From an uncultured Planctomycetaceae bacterium (GTDB lineage Bacteria > Planctomycetota > Planctomycetia > Pirellulales > PALSA-1355), in NCBI GenBank assembly GCA_963785305.1, contig CAWAUV010000002.1, positions 160,001 to 224,000 of the forward strand: DNA of 64,000 nt. The letters are read 5' to 3'. Numbering within the stretch: position 1 is the stretch's first letter; each line of letters begins with the position of its first letter. The position numbers and the translations under genes are program-made. Shown one piece after another: positions 1 to 7,402 of this stretch. The notes beneath the pieces were generated by a model. The model saw only the letters and a program-made list of their open reading frames with translations, was not told the origin of the DNA and searched no databases.

Positions 1-25
1 ATGACGATCTCCAGTTCAGGCAAGG

Positions 26-100
26 GGTATCTGAGCGGAGTTGAACCGCCACCTTCTGGTTCACAGCCAGACGTGCAGAAACCGCTACACCACAGACACC
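26..100 (-). tRNA. tRNA-His(GTG), array member
   Basis: Anticodon loop CTGTGAA; G-1:C73 present. Confidence 0.9.
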
Positions 101-113
101 ATATAGTTGTCAG

Positions 114-186
114 CGCCCCGACCAGGAGTCGAACCCGGAATCTCTCGTTAGAAGCGAGATGTGATGATCCATTTCACCATCGAGGC
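114..186 (-). tRNA. tRNA-Arg(TCT)
   Basis: Anticodon loop CTTCTAA, T-loop TTCGACT. Confidence 0.9.
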
Positions 187-191
187 CCAAG

Positions 192-279
192 CGGAAGGCA
201 TGGGATTTGAACCCACATGACCCTTGCGGGTCGCACGGTTTAGCAAACCGGCCCGACCAGCCGTATTCGGCTACCTTCC
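192..279 (-). tRNA. tRNA-Ser(GCT)
   Basis: Loop TTGCTAA, long variable arm, G73. Confidence 0.9.
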
Positions 280-289
280 AAGTTGTCAG

Positions 290-360
290 TGGACCCACCG
301 AGAATCGAACTCGGATCTCCGCCACGCCAGGGCGGTGTCGTCCCGTTGGACCATGAGCCC
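290..360 (-). tRNA. tRNA-Ala(GGC)
   Basis: Loop CTGGCGT, G3:U70, A73. Confidence 0.9.
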
Positions 361-371
361 GTCGTTGTCAG

Positions 372-444
372 TGGACCGAATGGGAATCGAACCCATCGCA
401 CCGATCTTGCAAGGATCAGTCGCCCCCGTGGAACATGCCGGCCC
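372..444 (-). tRNA. tRNA-Ala(TGC)
   Basis: Loop CTTGCAA, G3:U70. Confidence 0.9.
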
Positions 445-454
445 GTACATCGAG

Positions 455-526
455 AGGTCCGTCCGGGAATCGAACCCGGCCTTCCTCCTTACCGAGGAGG
501 CGTGCGGCCAATAGCACTTACAGACC
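455..526 (-). tRNA. tRNA-Thr(GGT), C33 variant
   Basis: Stem CCTCC/GGAGG, loop TCGGTAA. Confidence 0.85.
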
Positions 527-530
527 AGAG

Positions 531-603
531 TGATCCCGGATGGACTCGAACCACCGATTTCCTGGATGTCGACCAGGCGTCTTGACCGCTGGACCACGGG
601 ATC
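531..603 (-). tRNA. tRNA-Val(GAC), C33 variant
   Basis: Loop TCGACAT, A73. Confidence 0.85.
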
Positions 604-608
604 GTGAG

Positions 609-685
609 TAACCGAGGTGGGCGTCGAACCCACAAAATCACGAGGCTCTCGACCTCGCCGCTTTGCCTAGTTTGCGTACCCGGCC
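609..685 (-). tRNA. tRNA-Leu(GAG), no variable stem, C33
   Basis: Loop TCGAGAG, A73, about 7-nt variable region. Confidence 0.8.
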
Positions 686-705
686 GTGAATATCGTCCTT
701 GCAAA

Positions 706-774
706 TTGCAGGTCCGGGTGTCGCACCCGGCGGTCCGGGCTTATGAGGCCCAGCTGAGCACTGGCTCACCTGCG
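706..774 (-). tRNA. tRNA-Met(CAT), initiator-like with reduced D-arm
   Basis: Loop CTCATAA, C1:A72 mismatch, T-loop TGCGACA, 69 nt. Confidence 0.75.
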
Positions 775-813
775 TCATGTCGGTCGGACGCGGTGCCCGC
801 CGACATAGTTCAG

Positions 814-897
814 TGACCAAGGGGAGAGTCGAACTCCCATGCCATTGATGGCACGACGTTCTGAGCGTCGCGTGTCTGCCAGTTCCACCACTTGGTC
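814..897 (-). tRNA. tRNA-Leu(CAG)
   Basis: Loop CTCAGAA, variable stem present. Confidence 0.9.
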
Positions 898-909
898 AAT
901 GTGATCGAG

Positions 910-982
910 TGACCCGTGCGGGAATCGAACCCGCCCTTCCAGCTTGAGAGGCTGGCGTCCTGAACCGATAGACAAACGGGCC
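910..982 (-). tRNA. tRNA-Glu(CTC)
   Basis: Loop CTCTCAA. Confidence 0.9.
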
Positions 983-988
983 GCTCAG

Positions 989-1070
989 TGCGCCGGGCAG
1001 GAGTTGAACCTGCAATGCCCGAAGGCGGGTGGGTTACAGCCACTTGGGCACGCCAATGCCCAGCCGACGC
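989..1070 (-). tRNA. tRNA-Tyr(GTA)
   Basis: Loop CTGTAAC, variable arm. Confidence 0.9.
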
Positions 1071-1078
1071 GTTTCGAG

Positions 1079-1157
1079 TGGCACGGGTCGGAGTCGAACC
1101 GACAGACAGATCACGAAGGTTTGAGCTTCGCCGCTTTACCGGTTTGCGTACCGTGCC
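1079..1157 (-). tRNA. tRNA-Leu(CAA), no variable stem
   Basis: Loop CTCAAAC, A73. Confidence 0.85.
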
Positions 1158-1165
1158 ATCACAAG

Positions 1166-1240
1166 CGTCCCCGGCGGGATTTGAACCCGCGATCTCCACC
1201 TTGACAGGGTGGCGAGCACTCCAGGCTGCTCCACGAGGAC
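1166..1240 (-). tRNA. tRNA-Asp(GTC)
   Basis: Loop CTGTCAA, G73. Confidence 0.9.
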
Positions 1241-1254
1241 AGATATATATTGAG

Positions 1255-1328
1255 TAGCTCAGGTGGGACTCGAACCCACAGCATCCCTGGTTCTAAGCCA
1301 AGGTGGTCTGCCAATTGCCTACCGAGCC
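1255..1328 (-). tRNA. tRNA-Leu(TAG), no variable stem
   Basis: Loop CTTAGAA, 74 nt. Confidence 0.85.
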
Positions 1329-1347
1329 ATGTCGCTGTCCATCGCAG

Positions 1348-1420
1348 TGCCCAGGGCAGGAGTCGAACCTGCAAACACTCGGGTTTAAGCCGAACCGCTC
1401 TGCCGTTGGCGTACCTGGGC
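1348..1420 (-). tRNA. tRNA-Leu(TAA), no variable stem
   Basis: Loop CTTAAAC, 73 nt. Confidence 0.85.
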
Positions 1421-1424
1421 GCAG

Positions 1425-1497
1425 TAGTCCCGGGTGGACTCGAACCACCGGTCGGCGCTTTGTAGGAGCGCTGCCTTTGCCGCTAGGCGACGGGACC
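1425..1497 (-). tRNA. tRNA-Val(TAC), C33 variant
   Basis: Loop CCTACAA. Confidence 0.85.
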
Positions 1498-1511
1498 GCG
1501 TATGCGTGAAG

Positions 1512-1582
1512 TGGACTCACTGGGATTCGCACCCAGATTTTCGGCTTGCGGAGCCGGCGTCTTCCTGTTGGACGATGAGCCC
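1512..1582 (-). tRNA. tRNA-Ala(CGC), C33 variant
   Basis: Loop TCCGCAA, G3:U70, T-loop TGCGAAT. Confidence 0.85.
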
Positions 1583-1596
1583 GAATGGATCGAAAG

Positions 1597-1682
1597 CGGA
1601 AGCGGTGAGACTCGAACTCACAAGCGGCCAAGTGCCGCCACCTGTTTTCGAGACAGGCTCCTCATCCGGCCGGATCACTTCC
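1597..1682 (-). tRNA. tRNA-Ser(CGA)
   Basis: Loop CTCGAAA, variable arm, G73. Confidence 0.9.
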
Positions 1683-1703
1683 GTAATTCAGCACTGCAAA
1701 AAG

Positions 1704-1778
1704 TTCCGGGGGTTGGAATCGAACCAACGACCTCCTGGTTCAGAGCCAGGCGTCACTACCAACAGCAACTACCCCGGA
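1704..1778 (-). tRNA. tRNA-Gln(CTG)
   Basis: Loop CTCTGAA, U1-A72. Confidence 0.9.
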
Positions 1779-1816
1779 TCGCGTTGTCTCGGCTGACACT
1801 CGCGCGAGTGCCTGAG

Positions 1817-1887
1817 TTCGGGGAGAAGGAATTGAACCTCCACCACCTGGTTCAAAGCCAGGCAGCCTACCGTTAGCCGATCCCCGA
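1817..1887 (-). tRNA. tRNA-Gln(TTG)
   Basis: Loop CTTTGAA, U1-A72. Confidence 0.9.
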
Positions 1888-1902
1888 TCGCGTTCGTGCG
1901 AA

Positions 1903-1974
1903 AGTGCCCTGTGGGAGTTGAACCCACCTCGCCAGCTTGGAAGGCTGGCACCTTTGCCGCTCGGCCAAGGGCAC
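1903..1974 (-). tRNA. tRNA-Gly(TCC)
   Basis: Loop CTTCCAA, U73. Confidence 0.9.
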
Positions 1975-1979
1975 ATGAG

Positions 1980-2063
1980 CGGAGGGAGAGGGAGTCGAAC
2001 CCCCAAGGCTTGTCGCTCGACTGTTTTCAAGACAGCTGCCATCGCCAGTCGGCTTGTCCCTCC
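1980..2063 (-). tRNA. tRNA-Ser(TGA)
   Basis: Loop CTTGAAA, variable arm, G73. Confidence 0.9.
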
Positions 2064-2071
2064 ACGCGAAG

Positions 2072-2143
2072 CTGCGGCGGCAGGAATCGAACCTGCAATC
2101 GTCTCCTTAACAGGGAGCTGCCTTACCGTTTGGCCACACCGCA
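2072..2143 (-). tRNA. tRNA-Asn(GTT)
   Basis: Loop CTGTTAA, U1-A72, G73. Confidence 0.9.
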
Positions 2144-2152
2144 ATGAATCAG

Positions 2153-2226
2153 TCAGGGCGGCTGGATTTGAACCAGCGCTCTCCTGCTCCCGAGGCAGGC
2201 GGAATTCCAGACTTTCCCACACCCTG
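2153..2226 (-). tRNA. tRNA-Pro(CGG)
   Basis: Loop CTCGGGA, C1-G72, A73. Confidence 0.9.
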
Positions 2227-2241
2227 ATGTCTTCAATTAAA

Positions 2242-2312
2242 AGCGCCCAGCGGGAGTCGAACCCGCACTTCCGCCATGGCAAGGCAGCAGGCTACCGCTA
2301 CATCATGGGCGC
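2242..2312 (-). tRNA. tRNA-Gly(GCC)
   Basis: Loop TTGCCAT, U73. Confidence 0.9.
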
Positions 2313-2326
2313 AAAGAATCGGACCA

Positions 2327-2340
2327 AATTGTCAAAGATC
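2327..2340 (-). promoter_or_regulatory. boxA-like antitermination element inside the tRNA array
   Basis: Sense GATCTTTGACAATT in a spacer; resembles rrn boxA (GCTCTTTAACA family). Confidence 0.6.
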
Positions 2341-2344
2341 GCAG

Positions 2345-2416
2345 AGCACCGGGTGGGACTCGAACCCACGTCGCCGCATTACGGGTGCGGGGTCCTCGCC
2401 GCTGGACGACCAGTGC
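2345..2416 (-). tRNA. tRNA-Thr(CGT), C33 variant
   Basis: Loop CCCGTAA. Confidence 0.85.
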
Positions 2417-2427
2417 CTAAGTGTCAG

Positions 2428-2500
2428 TGGGATCAGAGGGGCTCGAACCCTCACCGACCTGGGTAAGAACCAGGCATGCTGCCGCTAACACCTTGATCCC
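2428..2500 (-). tRNA. tRNA-Lys(CTT)
   Basis: Loop TTCTTAC. Confidence 0.9.
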
Positions 2501-2533
2501 GTCGTTCGTTTTGCTGTCGTTCTGTGCGCAAAC

Positions 2534-2605
2534 TCGGCGCGGAGGGAGTCGAACCCTCGTCTGATCCTTATAAGAGACCTGCTCTGACCGTTGAGCTACG
2601 CGCCG
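2534..2605 (-). tRNA. tRNA-Ile(TAT)
   Basis: CGGCGCG/CGCGCCG acceptor stem, GCTC/GAGC D-stem, loop CTTATAA, A73. Confidence 0.85.
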
Positions 2606-2639
2606 GCTAGGGCGATCGGTTGATCGCCGCTTCGACGAG

Positions 2640-2711
2640 TAGGGCCGGAGGGATTTGAACCCACACCTATCGGATTAAAAGTCCGGAGTGCTGCCGTTAC
2701 ACCACGACCCC
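2640..2711 (-). tRNA. tRNA-Lys(TTT)
   Basis: Loop CTTTTAA. Confidence 0.9.
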
Positions 2712-2800
2712 AAAGGTTGGTCGGGCGTATCCGTTTCGTGGGCTTGGTCTCGAACATCGTCTTGCGCGACATGTTGTGCCTCCTGCGTTCGCGTGCTCAG

Positions 2801-2871
2801 TAGTCCGGGATGGAGTTGAACCATCGCCGACGACATATCAGATCGCCATGCTGCCGTTACACCACCGGACA
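2801..2871 (-). tRNA. tRNA-Ile(GAT)
   Basis: Loop CTGATAT; first acceptor pair mismatched. Confidence 0.8.
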
Positions 2872-2889
2872 ACAACTCCGTCGCTTCAG

Positions 2890-2962
2890 TCGGGATGGTC
2901 GGACTCGAACCGACACGCTCGTGCTCCCAAGGCACGTGGGCTTGCCGTTACCCTACATCCCG
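2890..2962 (-). tRNA. tRNA-Pro(TGG)
   Basis: Loop CTTGGGA, C1-G72. Confidence 0.9.
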
Positions 2963-2986
2963 TTTGCCGTCACCATCTTCTGTCAG

Positions 2987-3059
2987 TAGCTCGTATGGGA
3001 GTCGAACCCATCTCTCCGGATTGAAAGCCCGGTATCCTGCACCGATAGACGAACGAGCC
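2987..3059 (-). tRNA. tRNA-Glu(TTC)
   Basis: Loop CTTTCAA. Confidence 0.9.
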
Positions 3060-3105
3060 GCGTGTTTTACCGTCCGCGCGCACCCTGGCGCGCACGTCGA
3101 GCGAG

Positions 3106-3177
3106 TGGGTCGGGAGGCGCTCGAATCCTCGTCTGCGGCTTTTCAGGCCGCCGCTAAACCGTCTCAGCTACCGGCCC
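3106..3177 (-). tRNA. tRNA-Phe(GAA), first gene of the array
   Basis: Loop CTGAAAA. Confidence 0.9.
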
Positions 3178-3222: not shown

Positions 3223-3255
3223 AAAAAAGGCCCGATGTCCTTGCGACACCGAGCC
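3223..3255 (-). terminator. Intrinsic terminator/attenuator in the tRNA-array leader
   Basis: Sense GGCTCGGTGTC-GCAAG-GACATCGGGCC followed by T6. Confidence 0.75.
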
Positions 3256-3508
3256 TTTTGGGCTTTCAGACCGTTTTCGTCCGAGTGTCACAAGCGCAGG
3301 ATTGGGGGCGAGGTTATTCACGCCTGACCGCGTGCCTTGGGCGCACATGGTATCGCGCAGCGTGGAATAACGCTCCGCCATGCGTTCTCGAATCGAACTC
3401 GGTCGTAAAAACATCATCGAAGTCACGTTTCCCGCAAAATCCGAGGGCCCGTCAAAAGGCCCGTCAAAAAGCACTCGCGAATATTCGCATCGCGAGGGCA
3501 TACCCACT

Positions 3509-3537: not shown

Positions 3538-3850
3538 GAAATTTTTAGGAGCCTTCCGCCAGCAACGGGTTCGCGTCGGCCGGCACTTGGCGAGGCTGAC
3601 AAAAGCCACGATGGCATTTTTCAACAGTCCGCGAACCGTGATGTTGTTTTCGCCCGGCAAAACACGGCGCTTTTGAGGTTGTTCTCGTTTCCGCGCGACG
3701 TTTTCTGGAGTCCAACTTCACGGAAACCGCAAAAAACGCCGCGATTTTTTTGGCGGGGGCCGCGGGCCCAGAAACCGCCTGACAATTACCCGCCATGTCA
3801 TTCCCCACGGCAAGCATGGACATGGCGCCCGGCGTCTTCGGTTTGGCCTC

Positions 3851-4995
3851 TTACACGCCCTTGTGACTTAAGAGCGGGCGGAGCCGCCGTAGTGATCGGG
3901 TGAGGCGCCGCTGCGCGCATCACCGCGAAGATGTCCTTGTAGGCTGACGGCGCTTCATCGCGAAGCGACCGCGCATGGCGCTGGTCGAACCAAACGCCTT
4001 GCATTTCGTCGAGCAGTTGCCGCTTTCCGATCGTTCGCGCCGCCGCCGCGCGGCTCAATGCGCGTCCGGCGCCGTGGGAGCTCGAGCACAACGATTCGGA
4101 ACATCCGCGACCCAGCGTGTGAAAACTGGCCGTGCCCATGGAACCGGGCACAATTCCGGGCTCATCGGCCCGCGCCGACTGCGCTCCTTTGCGATGCACC
4201 CAAAGTTCGACGCCCTCATGGACTTCGGCTCGCACATGGTTGTGATCGGCATGGATGATCGAGTGTTCTTCAAGTCCGATGTCAAACAGTTCGTCGAGTG
4301 TTTCGGCGACGTTCGCCAGCATCGCCAGCCGATTGGCCGAGGCATAGCGCTGGGCCCAAGCGGCGTCGGCCAGGTAATTACATCCCCCGGGGCTTTCGGC
4401 GACGAAAAACGGCAGCCACTTGGCCTCGAGATCGATCTGGGCCAGCGAGGTGATGATTCGTAATGGCCTGGCCCATGCCGCGCAAACCCGAGTGAATCAT
4501 CACCCATAGTTGGTCCTGATCGTCGCTTTGAAATTCGAGAAAATGGTTGCCGCGGCCCAGAGTGCCCAACTGCACTCGCCCCTCGCGAGATTTCAGTTTA
4601 TCGAGTCGCGGGTGGCTCAGCGGCATGTGGGCGAGCGCCTCGGGCAAGGCCTCGGGCATTGTCCCCGCGCCATGTTTGAGCGAGGGAACCCGGCGATAGA
4701 GCGCGTCGAGGAGTTTGGCGGCCAAGCGCTCATCGGCCAGGAGTTCCGCGGCGCCCGAGAATCGCGCCGTGAGAATGCCGCAACCGATATCGCCGCCAAC
4801 GGCCGCCGGAAAGATTCGCGAGCGCATGCCCACGACGAGCCCGACGCACACCTGTTTGGCTAGGTGCGCGTCGGGCATTACCGCAATTCGCTCTACATCG
4901 TCTAATCGCGCCAAGGCTTCAATGGCGGCCGCGGCCTCTGGCGGCAGAGGCTCCGCGAGCCAGCAACGCGCCTTTCGATGCGAAGCGCGATTCAT
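3851..4995 (-). CDS. rtcB: RtcB-family RNA ligase (frameshifted in this sequence)
   Basis: Motifs MPDAH, VGGDIGCG, GTLGRGNHF, IHSG, HNH, HRKGA, PGSMGT, SHGAGR, DEAPSAYKDI across several frames. Confidence 0.92.
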
Positions 4996-5428
4996 TGGCC
5001 GCCCTCGAAGGCTTTCGGAGACGCGAGAAACTCGAACAACAGCTTCGGCGCCCGCTTCCGAGTAATCGCCGCCGCCACGCCGCGCGCAGGCGTCCGGACT
5101 CCGCGGCAAGGCGCGCGAGAACTTCGAACGGATCGAATGGCGCGGCGGGCTCGACCGCTGGAACCACGACCACAAGCAATCGCGACGCGTCGGGCGCCGG
5201 TCGAACTTCGGCCACTTGCAGGAGCGAAAGCAACTCGTCGCGACTCTCGCCGCCCAGCAAATAATTCAGCGTGTCTTGAGCCTGGCTGCAAAGCTGCAAG
5301 GTTTTGCGTCCGGATTTCCACCCGGCTTTGCCTTGGCGGAAGAAGTCCCGGGGATCGACGCCATCGTCATCTCGCGATTCGGAAGATAAGGGCGGCACTC
5401 GGCGCGCGGCCCGTCGTTTGGATGTCAT
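4992..5428 (-). CDS. RbfA-like (ribosome-binding factor A family) paralog, one frameshift
   Basis: LQVAEVRPAPDASRLLV ... GRLR ... AITRKRAPKLLF KH-like pattern; stop overlaps rtcB start (ATGA). Confidence 0.7.
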
Positions 5429-5702: not shown

Positions 5703-5792
5703 ATCGGAAATCGCGGCAAGCCGGCGGACGTTGAGCTAGAAATGAACAAAGGACTCGCGGCATGGCGCCGTAAGTCCTTTGCTAGCTATGAG

Positions 5793-5876
5793 TGCGGGAA
5801 ACAGGACTTGAACCTGCACGAGGTTACCCCCACCAGGCCCTCAACCTGGCGCGTCTGCCAATTCCGCCATTCCCGC
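5793..5876 (-). tRNA. tRNA-Leu(GAG), canonical copy
   Basis: Loop TTGAGGG, variable arm, canonical D-loop. Confidence 0.95.
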
Positions 5877-5902
5877 GGGCAGTTGTGCTCCGTGTGGAGT
5901 AT

Positions 5903-7402
5903 TCAACTTTTTTGCCGCGGCGTCAAGCCATCGCCCGCCGAGATCGCGAACACATCCTTTAACCCGCCGAGCTTCTCGCTTTTGCCGCCGATCGCATGGA
6001 CCTCCGGGCCGACATGCGCCGTCACCAAGCTACCAAACAGCGTGAACGGGCTCGCCTCGACGATCGTCACCGGCAAAATCCGACCGATCTGACGCTGTGT
6101 GCCCGAAAACACCACGATGCGGTCGCAACGGGTGCGGCCCACGAGTTGCAACACCGGGCCCGACTCGCCCAGCTTTTGACTTGTTTTGCTTGGTCCCTCG
6201 ACGAGCACCTCCAGCGTGCGGCCGACCAGCGGCTGATTGTCTTCGTGGCTGATCGCGTTTTGGATCGCCAAGAGGTCGTTGTTGCGCCGCCGCTTCACTT
6301 CCTCGGGCACGTCGTCGGGAAAAAGTTGGGCTCCCTTCGTGCCGGGCCGCTCGCTGTATTTGAAGATGAAGCTGTTCTTGAAGCGGCATTCGCGCACCAG
6401 CGACTCCGTGGCGGCGAAGTCGTCTTCGGTCTCGCCCGAAAAGCCCACGATAAAATCGCTCGTCACGGCCGCCTCGGGCACAATCTCGCGAATGCGGGCC
6501 ATCATCTCGCGATATTCCTCCACCGTGTAACCGCGTTTCATGCGGCGGAGCACCGTGTTCGAGCCGCTTTGCGCCGGCACATGCAAATAGGGCGACACCT
6601 TGGGCAGGTCGCGCACCGCCTGGAGCAGGTCGTCGGTCATGTCGCGCGGATAATTGGTCACGAACTTGAGCCGATCGAGCCCCGCGATATCGCCGAGCGC
6701 CACGAGCAGGTCGGCCAATCGCCACAGGCGACCGCCGCTCGCGTGGCGATAGCTGTTGACGGTTTGGCCCAGGAGCGTGATCTCGCGGCAGCCTTCGGCG
6801 GCGAGTTGCTTCGCTTCGGCGATGATCGCCTCGGGCGGCCGGCTTTGCTCGGGTCCGCGCACCGAAGGCACGATGCAATAGGTACAGAATTTGTCGCAAC
6901 CGATCATGATCCGCACGAAGGCTTGGAATGGGCTCGGCCGCATCGTCGGATCGCGGAGCGGATCGTAACTCTCGAAGCTCTGCTCGACCACGTCGCGAGC
7001 GCCGGCCTTGCGATCAAGACTCACTTCAAGCTGTTCGCTCGCTCCGGCTTCGGCGCGGGCAATCAACTCGGCGGTCTGATGAATCTGGCCGGGCCCGACC
7101 ACGAGATCGACAAACGGGGCCCGCTCGAAGATGAGGCGTTGATCCTTTTGGGCCATGCAACCCAACACGCCGATGATTTTGTGCGGATGCTCGCGTTTGG
7201 CGTGTTTGAGTCGGCCGAGGGCGCTGTAGATTTTGTCTTCGGCGTGCTGGCGTACACTGCATGTGTTGAACAGTATCACATCGGCCTGGGCCGGCGCGTC
7301 GGCCAGTTCATAGCCCTCTTTGCGCAGACTGGCCACGACCAGCTCGCTATCGAGCATGTTCATTTGGCAGCCGACGGTTTCGATATAAAGTCGTTTGGCC
7401 AC
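5903..7402 (-). CDS. miaB: tRNA methylthiotransferase MiaB
   Basis: GCQMN, NTCSVR, radical-SAM CDKFCTYC, C-terminal TRAM-like domain. Confidence 0.95.
   Translation of the reverse strand: MAKRLYIETVGCQMNMLDSELVVASLRKEGYELADAPAQADVILFNTCSVRQHAEDKIYSALGRLKHAKREHPHKIIGVLGCMAQKDQRLIFERAPFVDLVVGPGQIHQTAELIARAEAGASEQLEVSLDRKAGARDVVEQSFESYDPLRDPTMRPSPFQAFVRIMIGCDKFCTYCIVPSVRGPEQSRPPEAIIAEAKQLAAEGCREITLLGQTVNSYRHASGGRLWRLADLLVALGDIAGLDRLKFVTNYPRDMTDDLLQAVRDLPKVSPYLHVPAQSGSNTVLRRMKRGYTVEEYREMMARIREIVPEAAVTSDFIVGFSGETEDDFAATESLVRECRFKNSFIFKYSERPGTKGAQLFPDDVPEEVKRRRNNDLLAIQNAISHEDNQPLVGRTLEVLVEGPSKTSQKLGESGPVLQLVGRTRCDRIVVFSGTQRQIGRILPVTIVEASPFTLFGSLVTAHVGPEVHAIGGKSEKLGGLKDVFAISAGDGLTPRQKS

Follow-up and report, generated by a model that had tools for sequence, protein, structure and literature searches.

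The question raised by the locus analyzed here is what a short open reading frame (ORF) does between two genes of a tRNA array. The locus lies in a 64,000-nucleotide (nt) stretch of DNA from an uncultured Planctomycetaceae bacterium (the window; G000:C2:160001-224000), which carries a long tRNA array on its minus strand. In the spacer between tRNA-Ile(GAU) and tRNA-Lys(UUU) of this array, a Shine-Dalgarno (SD) motif and an ATG open a frame that runs directly into the tRNA-Lys gene. The answer that we lean towards, with modest confidence, is that the spacer is a leader read by ribosomes and that its ORF is a sensor gating the folding and 5' maturation of the array-borne tRNA-Lys(UUU). The layout of such a sensor would be SD, start, about six free codons, AAA-CGN-AUA and, directly behind, a strand able to pair with the tRNA (segment 1). 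The features concerned are listed in Table 1.

Table 1. Coordinates of the leader, its proposed elements and the neighboring genes in the window
Feature	Position	Strand	Remark
Leader region, 88-nt spacer between tRNA-Ile(GAU) and tRNA-Lys(UUU)	2712..2799	-	
SD motif AGGAGG	2779..2784	-	followed by a 6-nt spacer, CACAAC
ATG start of leader ORF	2770..2772	-	12 codons ahead of AAA in this lineage
Internal in-frame ATG	2755..2757	-	consensus position, 7 codons ahead of AAA; no SD of its own
AAA, putative sensor codon	2734..2736	-	decoded only by tRNA-Lys(UUU)
ATA, putative sensor codon	2728..2730	-	decoded by array tRNA-Ile(UAU) or lysidine tRNA-Ile2
Segment 1, ACGCCCGACC, anti-acceptor strand	2719..2728	-	complementary to tRNA-Lys nt 3-13
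Segment 2, tRNA-Lys nt 3-13 (5' acceptor strand and start of D stem)	2699..2709	-	
tRNA-Lys(UUU), putatively gated gene	2639..2711	-	ARAGORN; Rfam 60.1 bits
tRNA-Ile(UAU)	2534..2605	-	ARAGORN; D arm holds the TAG of the leader ORF (2598-2596)
tRNA-Ile(GAU), gene upstream of leader	2800..2871	-	ARAGORN, Rfam; same neighbor in most homologous arrays
Accessory long tRNA array	24..3177	-	31 ARAGORN genes, 2 Rfam-only genes and a weak tRNA-like match
rtcB (RNA ligase), directly upstream of array	3798..5175	-	ORFs 4378-5175 and 3798-4322

The SD, its spacing and the ATG were recovered on the minus strand as given in a preliminary description of this locus. The frame remains open through tRNA-Lys(TTT) and ends inside tRNA-Ile(TAT) after 58 amino acids (aa; 2772..2596, minus strand, MSRKTMFETKPTKRIRPTNL then WGRG...). 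It contains two in-frame ATA codons as described, one in the spacer (2730-2728) and one in the interior of tRNA-Lys (2670-2668). Compared with the consensus of homologous leaders, the leader of the window has a 5-codon N-terminal extension, and its peptide reads P-T-K in place of R-x-K. The canonical anti-SD tail occurs twice in the genome. No Rfam family, T-box included, matched the spacer 2712-2799 at E<=1, and no tRNA-like sequence was found in it at this threshold; a decayed tRNA was rejected on this account.

In this window alone, the SD-ATG motif was no more than chance. The pattern AGGAG-N5-9-ATG occurred six times vs 5.5 expected, and six or more occurrences were reached in 46 of 100 shuffled sequences. 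The array is also poor in stops, with 50 ORFs of at least 30 aa within 3.6 kb. Judged by sequence comparison, it is conservation in related arrays that raises the leader above chance.

A DNA search with the region returned first relatives from several families, and nine of nine displayed the same gene order and the long spacer (Phe-Glu-Pro-Ile(GAU)-[65-94 nt]-Lys(UUU)-Ile(UAU)-Lys(CUU)-Thr...). The spacers of the first ten arrays all contained SD, ATG and an in-frame ...K(AAA)-R-I(ATA)-R.... In a search at the level of the order, 68 of 401 genomes matched at E<=1e-15, with a patchy distribution. The matched loci held 82 tRNA-Lys(TTT) genes detected by ARAGORN, corresponding to 77 unique upstream regions, 72 from arrays and five from stand-alone genes. 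An element anchored on AAAC was identified in 70 of the 72 array regions, and the leader element was absent from all five stand-alone regions. The preliminary description had taken absence of SD and ATG from homologous spacers to speak against its proposal; they proved to be present in most of them. An in-frame start without intervening stop was found in 66 of the 70 leaders (63 ATG, three TTG) and an SD-like motif 4-12 nt ahead of the start in 63 of the 70. The distance from start to AAA was exactly seven codons in 55 of 66 leaders, and ATA lay two codons past AAA, also in 55 of 66. The full layout of start, six codons, AAA, CGN and ATA was counted in 55 of the 72 array regions.

The two array regions without the element (L086 and L089) have a repeat-rich spacer (CTACGGTCT / TAGGC motifs) with no ORF instead of the leader, and their respective genomes (G075 and G114) each hold a second array with a normal leader. 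In L083 and L084, a palindromic insert (CAACTCGC GGAG CGAGTTG type) is located between leader and tRNA and the ORF is longer; these two arrays are also without tRNA-Ile(UAU) and the ATA codon.

A second sample was retrieved by a pattern consisting of AAAC..ATA and the 5' end of the tRNA, with the start left unspecified. It contained at least 41 loci with an ARAGORN tRNA-Lys(TTT), at least 40 of which carry the motif directly upstream of tRNA-Lys(TTT), while one (L117) was a chance match. Among the matches listed, 40 of 40 true ones displayed an in-frame start 5-9 codons ahead of AAA (38 ATG, two GTG). The 79 other matches listed had no tRNA-Lys(TTT) call, although some were Planctomycetota tRNA arrays (e.g., L133). 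The named carriers all belonged to Planctomycetota (among them Pirellulales, Pirellulaceae, Lacipirellulaceae, Thermoguttaceae, Planctomycetaceae, Fuerstiella, one metagenome-assembled genome labelled Ca. Kuenenia and Thalassoglobus neptunius KOR42, the last being a cultured carrier of the leader element). Among 24 pattern matches on viral contigs, one was a true array: L215 (IMGVR_UViG_3300007072_000340, 94 kb), a contig filed as viral, holds the same array and leader (MLTRLKRIRPTKY).

Behind the ATA codon, the conserved leader is complementary to the gene that follows. Starting with the final A of ATA, ten bases (ACGCC-CGACC) are complementary to nt 3-13 of tRNA-Lys, with U8 bulged, so segment 2 has two alternative partners, segment 1 or the tRNA's own 3' strand. 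The duplex energy between the segment after ATA and tRNA nt 1-12 averaged -13.1 vs -10.2 kcal/mol for shuffled sequences (99 sequences). RNAalifold recovered ACGCC:GGCGU from an alignment of 64 sequences, and the 10-bp helix was paired in 85.9% of the alignment cells vs 30-49% with the partner slid. Cells changed on both sides numbered 22 vs 11 +/- 2.7 in shuffled data, and 22 was reached in none of 500 shuffles. Two pairs covaried (GC32/GU21/AU8 and GC21/AU13), and one of the covarying sites is a synonymous third base of a proline codon, CCG occurring with C6 of the tRNA and CCA with U6. Pairing of the 5' acceptor strand with the upstream 25 nt was predicted at 0.68 for Lys(UUU) (n=93), and at no more than 0.20 for each of the other tRNA types of the arrays (n>=10). 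In the window, the minimum-energy fold of leader plus tRNA contains the helix, with an overall energy that was not unusual (z = 0.06).

Since helix and covariation stand alone, the element might act as RNA only, i.e., as an anti-acceptor or processing signal that times RNase P or RNase E without a ribosome, SD and ATG being kept for some other reason. The chance-level frequency of SD-ATG in the window would agree with this, and AAACGNATAC, the only A/U-rich patch in the G+C-rich spacer, could be a nuclease site. We regard such an element as improbable, however, given the coding signature of 68 unique sequences. ATG occurred 69 times in the frame of AAA vs four and three times in the other frames (seven out of frame), and stops between -21 and +18 were depleted in frame (two vs 11 and 38). 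Peaks of information content coincided with GGAG, ATG and the first two bases of the CGN codons, whose third bases are free, and the six codons following the start are nearly free. Insertions and deletions came in multiples of three, giving distances of 5, 6, 7, 8, 11-14 and 17 codons. The ATA of L008 is shifted in position yet still in frame, and the SD-like motif keeps its fixed distance in 63 of 70 leaders.

The design is specific to the Lys(TTT) spacer: an SD-ATG ORF entering the next tRNA was found in 54 of 65 such spacers, vs 12 among some 250 others with a length of 35 nt or more. These 12 include the same leader ahead of a Lys-type tRNA with anticodon TAT. In this locus (L078:1525-1597), the Lys(UUU) slot is taken by a tRNA with a Lys-type body, the usual leader and the loop CTTATAA, an apparent anticodon shift, and an ordinary tRNA-Ile(TAT) follows directly. 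By these computations, the mini-ORF is conserved, frame-constrained and SD-led, and it is presumably translated.

The 58-aa product of the preliminary description did not hold up in the comparison. Relatives read the tRNA-encoded part in three different frames, and of the 66 ORFs, one stops in the spacer, 19 in the D arm, 29 in the anticodon loop, one elsewhere in tRNA-Lys and 16 beyond it. With differing frames into the tRNA and three main stop locations, the long ORF is incidental, as is its second ATA, and on this comparison of frames the 58-aa ORF was rejected as a protein. The consensus peptide of the leaders is M-x4-R6-x7-K8, with a variable x7 and the CG of R6 at 96% and 90%. Conservation also extends over R-L-K-R-I-R-P, whose codons vary synonymously. 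This pattern could also be expected if the product itself mattered, either as a basic peptide of about 15-20 aa acting in trans or as a non-stop fragment that engages transfer-messenger RNA (tmRNA) after an RNase P cut. A precedent for a trans-acting leader peptide, peTrpL, is described in the available portion of PMC7298713, and a ribosome paused during the RNase P cut would sit on a non-stop RNA. We consider both forms of this idea very improbable, as the C-terminus is undefined, with stops at varied places and in three frames, the six N-terminal residues are free, and neither a peptide nor tmRNA explains the tRNA complementarity and the codon choice. The non-stop mini-mRNA of the preliminary description would, at most, result from an RNase P cut made while a ribosome is paused, and would not be the function.

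The codons themselves argue for a ribosome that senses the supply of particular tRNAs. The lysine codon was AAA in 70 of 70 leaders and AAG in none, although 63% of the lysine codons in the genome's long ORFs are AAG. Only two codons are rarer in this genome than ATA (2.5 per 1000, 6% of isoleucine codons). AAA is decoded solely by tRNA-Lys(UUU), tRNA-Ile(GAU) is unable to read AUA, and AUA is normally decoded by lysidine tRNA-Ile2. In this genome the TilS gene adjoins a tRNA with CAT anticodon; therefore, AUA would normally be read by lysidine tRNA-Ile2 here as well. The array-borne tRNA-Ile(UAU) is the sole gene with this anticodon in the genome, and tRNA-Lys(UUU) has a second, stand-alone copy at C7:1087914. 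By sequence, AAA and AUA match exactly the two tRNAs encoded next.

The ATA codon follows the gene content of the respective array. With tRNA-Ile(UAU) next, ATA was present in 52 leaders and absent from two, vs six and eight with another gene next (Fisher 1.5e-5, uncorrected for phylogeny). In the eight losses, which occurred in five families, AAA was kept and ATA was replaced by GCG, CAG, CTA, CGC, GGC, AGA, ATG and AAT. Genome G171 contains two arrays with near-identical leaders, one having ATA and tRNA-Ile(UAU) (L058) and the other CTA and no tRNA-Ile(UAU) (L073).

The effect of the leader on folding was measured as the probability that nt 1-7 of tRNA-Lys pair with its own 3' end, in 67 unique sequences and with the leader numbered from AAA. 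The tRNA alone gave a mean of 0.91 (above 0.5 in 67/67), and attaching the leader from AAA lowered the mean to 0.05 (1/67), the mean minimum energy being -34.7 kcal/mol with the leader vs -28.8 for the tRNA alone. Pairing returned stepwise when leader bases were kept single-stranded, with means of 0.16 for nt 1-8 (8/67), 0.78 for nt 1-13 (55/67), 0.81 for nt 1-14 (57/67) and 0.90 for nt 1-19 (65/67). Two boundaries were assumed for a ribosome, counted from the first base of the A site: 8 nt by its helicase (the conservative value) and 13 nt by toeprint. A ribosome with AAA in the A site would thus mask nt 1-8 or 1-13, and one with AUA there nt 1-14 or 1-19. In this folding model, a ribosome waiting at AUA flips the predicted fold under either boundary, and one waiting at AAA does so only with the larger footprint. 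In 34 further sequences from named records, values above 0.5 were obtained for 34 with the tRNA alone, two with the leader, 26 with nt 1-13 masked and 33 with nt 1-19 masked.

The preliminary description had suggested that ribosomes on the precursor could control maturation of both following tRNAs as a feedback sensor. For tRNA-Lys(UUU) this idea gains support from comparison and folding, because the codons are cognate to the next two tRNAs, the anti-acceptor helix lies behind AUA and no stop precedes the tRNA. For tRNA-Ile(UAU) it does not. A domino effect on this gene was tried and rejected: with both genes in one RNA, mispairing was predicted for either tRNA (Lys 0.30, Ile 0.26), and the pair Thr(CGU)-Gly(GCC) gave the same result (0.28, 0.31), indicating that the signal is unspecific.

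The same switch could respond to another signal, and this is the main rival, though an unlikely one: the leader would encode an arrest peptide of the +X+ type, stalling on a tunnel-binding antibiotic or under general translation stress rather than on tRNA supply. The very short leader ErmDL provides a model. According to the accessible part of PMC8298421, a ribosome stalled on it melts a downstream hairpin and activates the next gene, ermD. R6-x7-K8 of the consensus has the residue numbering of the ErmDL (MTHSMRLR) motif Arg6-Leu7-Arg8, where Lys is tolerated (PMC8298421, in the same part). R-I-R comes directly after R6-x7-K8, and stalling at codon 8 would also flip the predicted switch, provided that the ribosome covers the leader up to nt 13. 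A long cyanobacterial array linked to rtcB is induced by translation inhibitors, as stated in passages of PMC8421152. With the 8-nt boundary, however, a stall at codon 8 fails to open the helix, and basic +X+ motifs are frequent by chance in short basic peptides. The basic-x-basic motif at residues 6-8 occurs in most homologous leaders, but the copy in the window is P-T-K, without R6-x7. An arrest peptide would also leave unexplained why AAA is always used and AAG never, and why ATA tracks tRNA-Ile(UAU). Unlike in ErmDL, codon choice (AAA, ATA) is conserved here beyond the amino acid, and the helix hides a tRNA acceptor strand, not the ribosome-binding site of a protein gene. The two signals, arrest peptide and codon supply, could also combine.

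Under the reading that we favor, in which the leader senses codon supply, ribosome-free segment 1 would pair with segment 2, and this helix (1:2) would beat the acceptor stem formed with the 3' strand (2:3). No cloverleaf and hence no substrate for RNase P would result (OFF). RNase P requires the acceptor stem. A ribosome with AUA in its A site would keep segment 1 single-stranded, and with the larger footprint the same would apply at AAA (ON). The tRNA-Lys would then fold, and the RNase P cut at +1 would release it irreversibly. Unpaused ribosomes would run into the tRNA, and after their departure the RNA would revert to 1:2. The pause length would report decoder supply, because AAA is read only via tRNA-Lys(UUU) and AUA via the array-only tRNA-Ile(UAU) and the scarce tRNA-Ile2. 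More tRNA-Lys(UUU) would mature when these decoders are scarce, and less when they are ample. Translation of the ORF, pausing that depends on supply, the block of RNase P by the 1:2 fold and the direction of regulation are what we infer from the computed features.

Two properties of the leader would follow from this mechanism. The spacer would have no stop because termination there would park a ribosome on segment 1 and leave the system constitutively on. ATA would track tRNA-Ile(UAU) because, in an array without an AUA decoder of its own, the pause at a rare AUA would always be long and the sensor useless. The association between ATA and tRNA-Ile(UAU) could be explained in this way without gating of tRNA-Ile(UAU) itself. 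An RNase P cut under a paused ribosome would leave the leader as a non-stop fragment, and tmRNA may fit in as a consequence.

The logic appears to be that of a leader-peptide attenuator. Ribosome-mediated transcription attenuators are known from amino-acid operons and the pheST operon (trpL, hisL, pheL, thrL, ilvL, pheM). As in these, an SD-led short ORF lies directly ahead of the putatively regulated gene, and the position of the ribosome would pick between the exclusive pairings 1:2 and 2:3, here in silico. The key codons of attenuators are cognate to the products of the regulated genes and usually come in runs; AAA and ATA match the next two tRNAs, each occurring once. Unlike in the attenuators, the regulated genes would be tRNAs, the 'antiterminator' would be the tRNA's own acceptor stem, and the leader ORF enters the gene that it would control, with a stop of its own in the spacer in only one of 66 leaders. 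The leader would thus differ in its target (a tRNA), in its output (folding and processing instead of termination or initiation) and in using the acceptor stem of the regulated gene as a switch arm.

A further difference is that a terminator was not found at the leader, so that folding and processing by RNase P, not transcription, would be controlled. The resemblance to attenuators in SD, short ORF and cognate codons nevertheless suggests an alternative, namely that the position of the ribosome sets whether transcription continues, by intrinsic or Rho-dependent termination, and gates all of the downstream tRNA genes. Four genes of the array precede the element, which could split the array into two regulatory units. 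Rho loading sites are C-rich and G-poor, and the stretch past ATA has this character, but it extends over only about 16 nt before the structured tRNA begins. None of the five terminator-like sites detected by a scan for hairpins with T runs falls within 2500-2900, and attenuation based on a terminator near the leader was rejected on this account. The complementarity is specific to the tRNA acceptor strand, which termination would not need. Polarity or attenuation of this kind therefore has, in our view, as little probability as an RNA-only signal, and control of tRNA-Lys maturation is retained as the favored reading.

Several points weigh against this reading. The evidence is computational throughout and consists of conservation, the coding signature, the identity of the codons, a complementarity that shows some covariation, the switch predicted by folding and the association of ATA with tRNA-Ile(UAU). 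The query used for retrieval contained the leader, which introduces some bias toward conserved leaders, and the sequences are related and many of the genomes are metagenome bins, so the counts overstate independence. Three leaders are frameshifted (L025, L032 and L075), and one is ended by the end of its contig (L046). Six leaders keep ATA without tRNA-Ile(UAU) next and two lose it with this gene next; moreover, the third base of ATA is part of the helix (A-U13), and the preference for ATA could be partly structural. The sensor codons AAA and AUA occur once per leader, where classical attenuators have runs of codons. The conserved residues suggest that the nascent chain probably matters too, which a pure codon-supply model leaves unexplained. 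Compensatory change was found in two helix pairs only, and at one of them 30 of 64 cells are unpaired in the chosen register. With the 8-nt boundary, a ribosome at AAA leaves the switch unflipped (0.16, 8/67). Shuffled leaders of the same composition already lower acceptor pairing to 0.41; composition thus seems to contribute to the switch effect without explaining it. The folding ignores tertiary structure of the tRNA, modification and co-transcriptional order, and the real balance may favor the cloverleaf.

None of the public sequencing runs contained half of the query words, and six RNA-library runs contained 7-9% of them. A contig from an RNA library (X15, record 2, 2691-3017) joins the 5' part of tRNA-Lys, the leader, tRNA-Ile(GAU) and tRNA-Pro, and in contigs from two further studies the SD-ATG leader of a relative is connected with tRNA-Ile(GAU). 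These contigs carry no information on ends, strand, level or ribosomes, and DNA carry-over is possible; they also belong to the points that weigh against the reading and were not counted as expression.

In bacteria, promoters under growth-rate and stringent control, together with general processing and decay, are considered to set the supply of tRNA. If the proposed reading is true, there would be direct feedback from decoding to tRNA supply, with the ribosome deciding on tRNA folding and release by RNase P. Such 'maturation attenuation' would form a third output class of leader-peptide switches besides transcription termination and translation initiation. No leader ORF controlling tRNA genes was found described in the literature searched by title and abstract.

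The array resembles the L-arrays or tRNA array units defined by at least 20 tRNA genes at a density of at least two per kb (PMC4758250, Tran et al., in the part available). Long accessory arrays are linked to rtcB in cyanobacteria, and Planctomycetes are among the phyla with such arrays, according to sections of PMC8421152 and PMC4758250. Like these, the array studied here has about 38 dense genes, is added to a dispersed housekeeping set, is patchy in its distribution and is linked to rtcB. In the Anabaena trn operon, control was mapped to repeats over the promoter, and the only long array studied was induced by translational stress (both from passages of PMC8421152). A term search of the accessible text of PMC8421152 and PMC4758250 found no passage on a leader ORF or an internal gate. 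If the reading is true, the element would also provide a first concrete point of access to the regulation of long accessory tRNA arrays. As it is short, sharply defined and present in at least one cultured strain, the idea is directly testable.

More tentatively, and as a possibility short of an expectation, we suggest that accessory arrays carry a decoding homeostat, in which a ten-codon leader tests the supply of the array's decoders for its rarest codons (Lys-UUU and Ile-UAU) and licenses or withholds tRNA maturation via the anti-acceptor helix. If true, this could be a replacement circuit, beside the repair ligase RtcB, should these tRNAs be depleted by anticodon nucleases or by translation stress.

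The array extends past the start of the window to about G000:C2:158667, and its whole span (C2:158667-163177) comprises about 38 genes in about 4.5 kb. The genome is 6.4 Mb in size with 62.6% G+C and 89 tRNA genes. The array is a second, accessory tRNA set, because a dispersed set of about 50 tRNA genes makes up the rest. The spacer of the leader had been called the longest of the array. The gaps left by ARAGORN at 1498-1702 and 686-812 are longer, and the statement holds once Rfam is considered, which fills them with tRNAs or a weak tRNA-like match. In the first gap, Rfam placed a tRNA at 1512-1582 and a Ser/Sec-like one (39.5 bits) at 1598-1682; in the second, the weak match (710-772) displayed a CAT anticodon loop by eye.

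Both ORFs of the rtcB locus matched Pfam RtcB (8.5e-35 and 1.9e-28), and the split stems from a frameshift in the gene or from an error of assembly. A MiaB/RimO-type methylthiotransferase (UPF0004 + Radical_SAM + TRAM; 5792-7402, minus strand) and a lone tRNA-Leu(GAG) are located beside rtcB and together form a small cluster of tRNA-related genes adjoining the array. Among 13 flanking ORFs scanned with Pfam, none was phage-like or an integrase; five had matches, to a PEP-CTERM protein, an AraC-type regulator, a histidine kinase, a beta-helix and TPR. A strong terminator-like hairpin (3225-3259, minus strand; 15 pairs, then TTTTTTGTTGG) lies 48 nt upstream of tRNA-Phe, the first gene of the array. 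It leaves little room for a promoter, and the array may be read through from rtcB, or the hairpin may act as a second gate. A perfect 7-bp hairpin, GGCGATC-AACC-GATCGCC, is also present between tRNA-Lys(UUU) and tRNA-Ile(UAU), in their spacer (2606-2638, minus strand). At the far end of the array (G000:C2:158667-158738), the last tRNA was called as Ile with anticodon AAT, which is unusual for bacteria.

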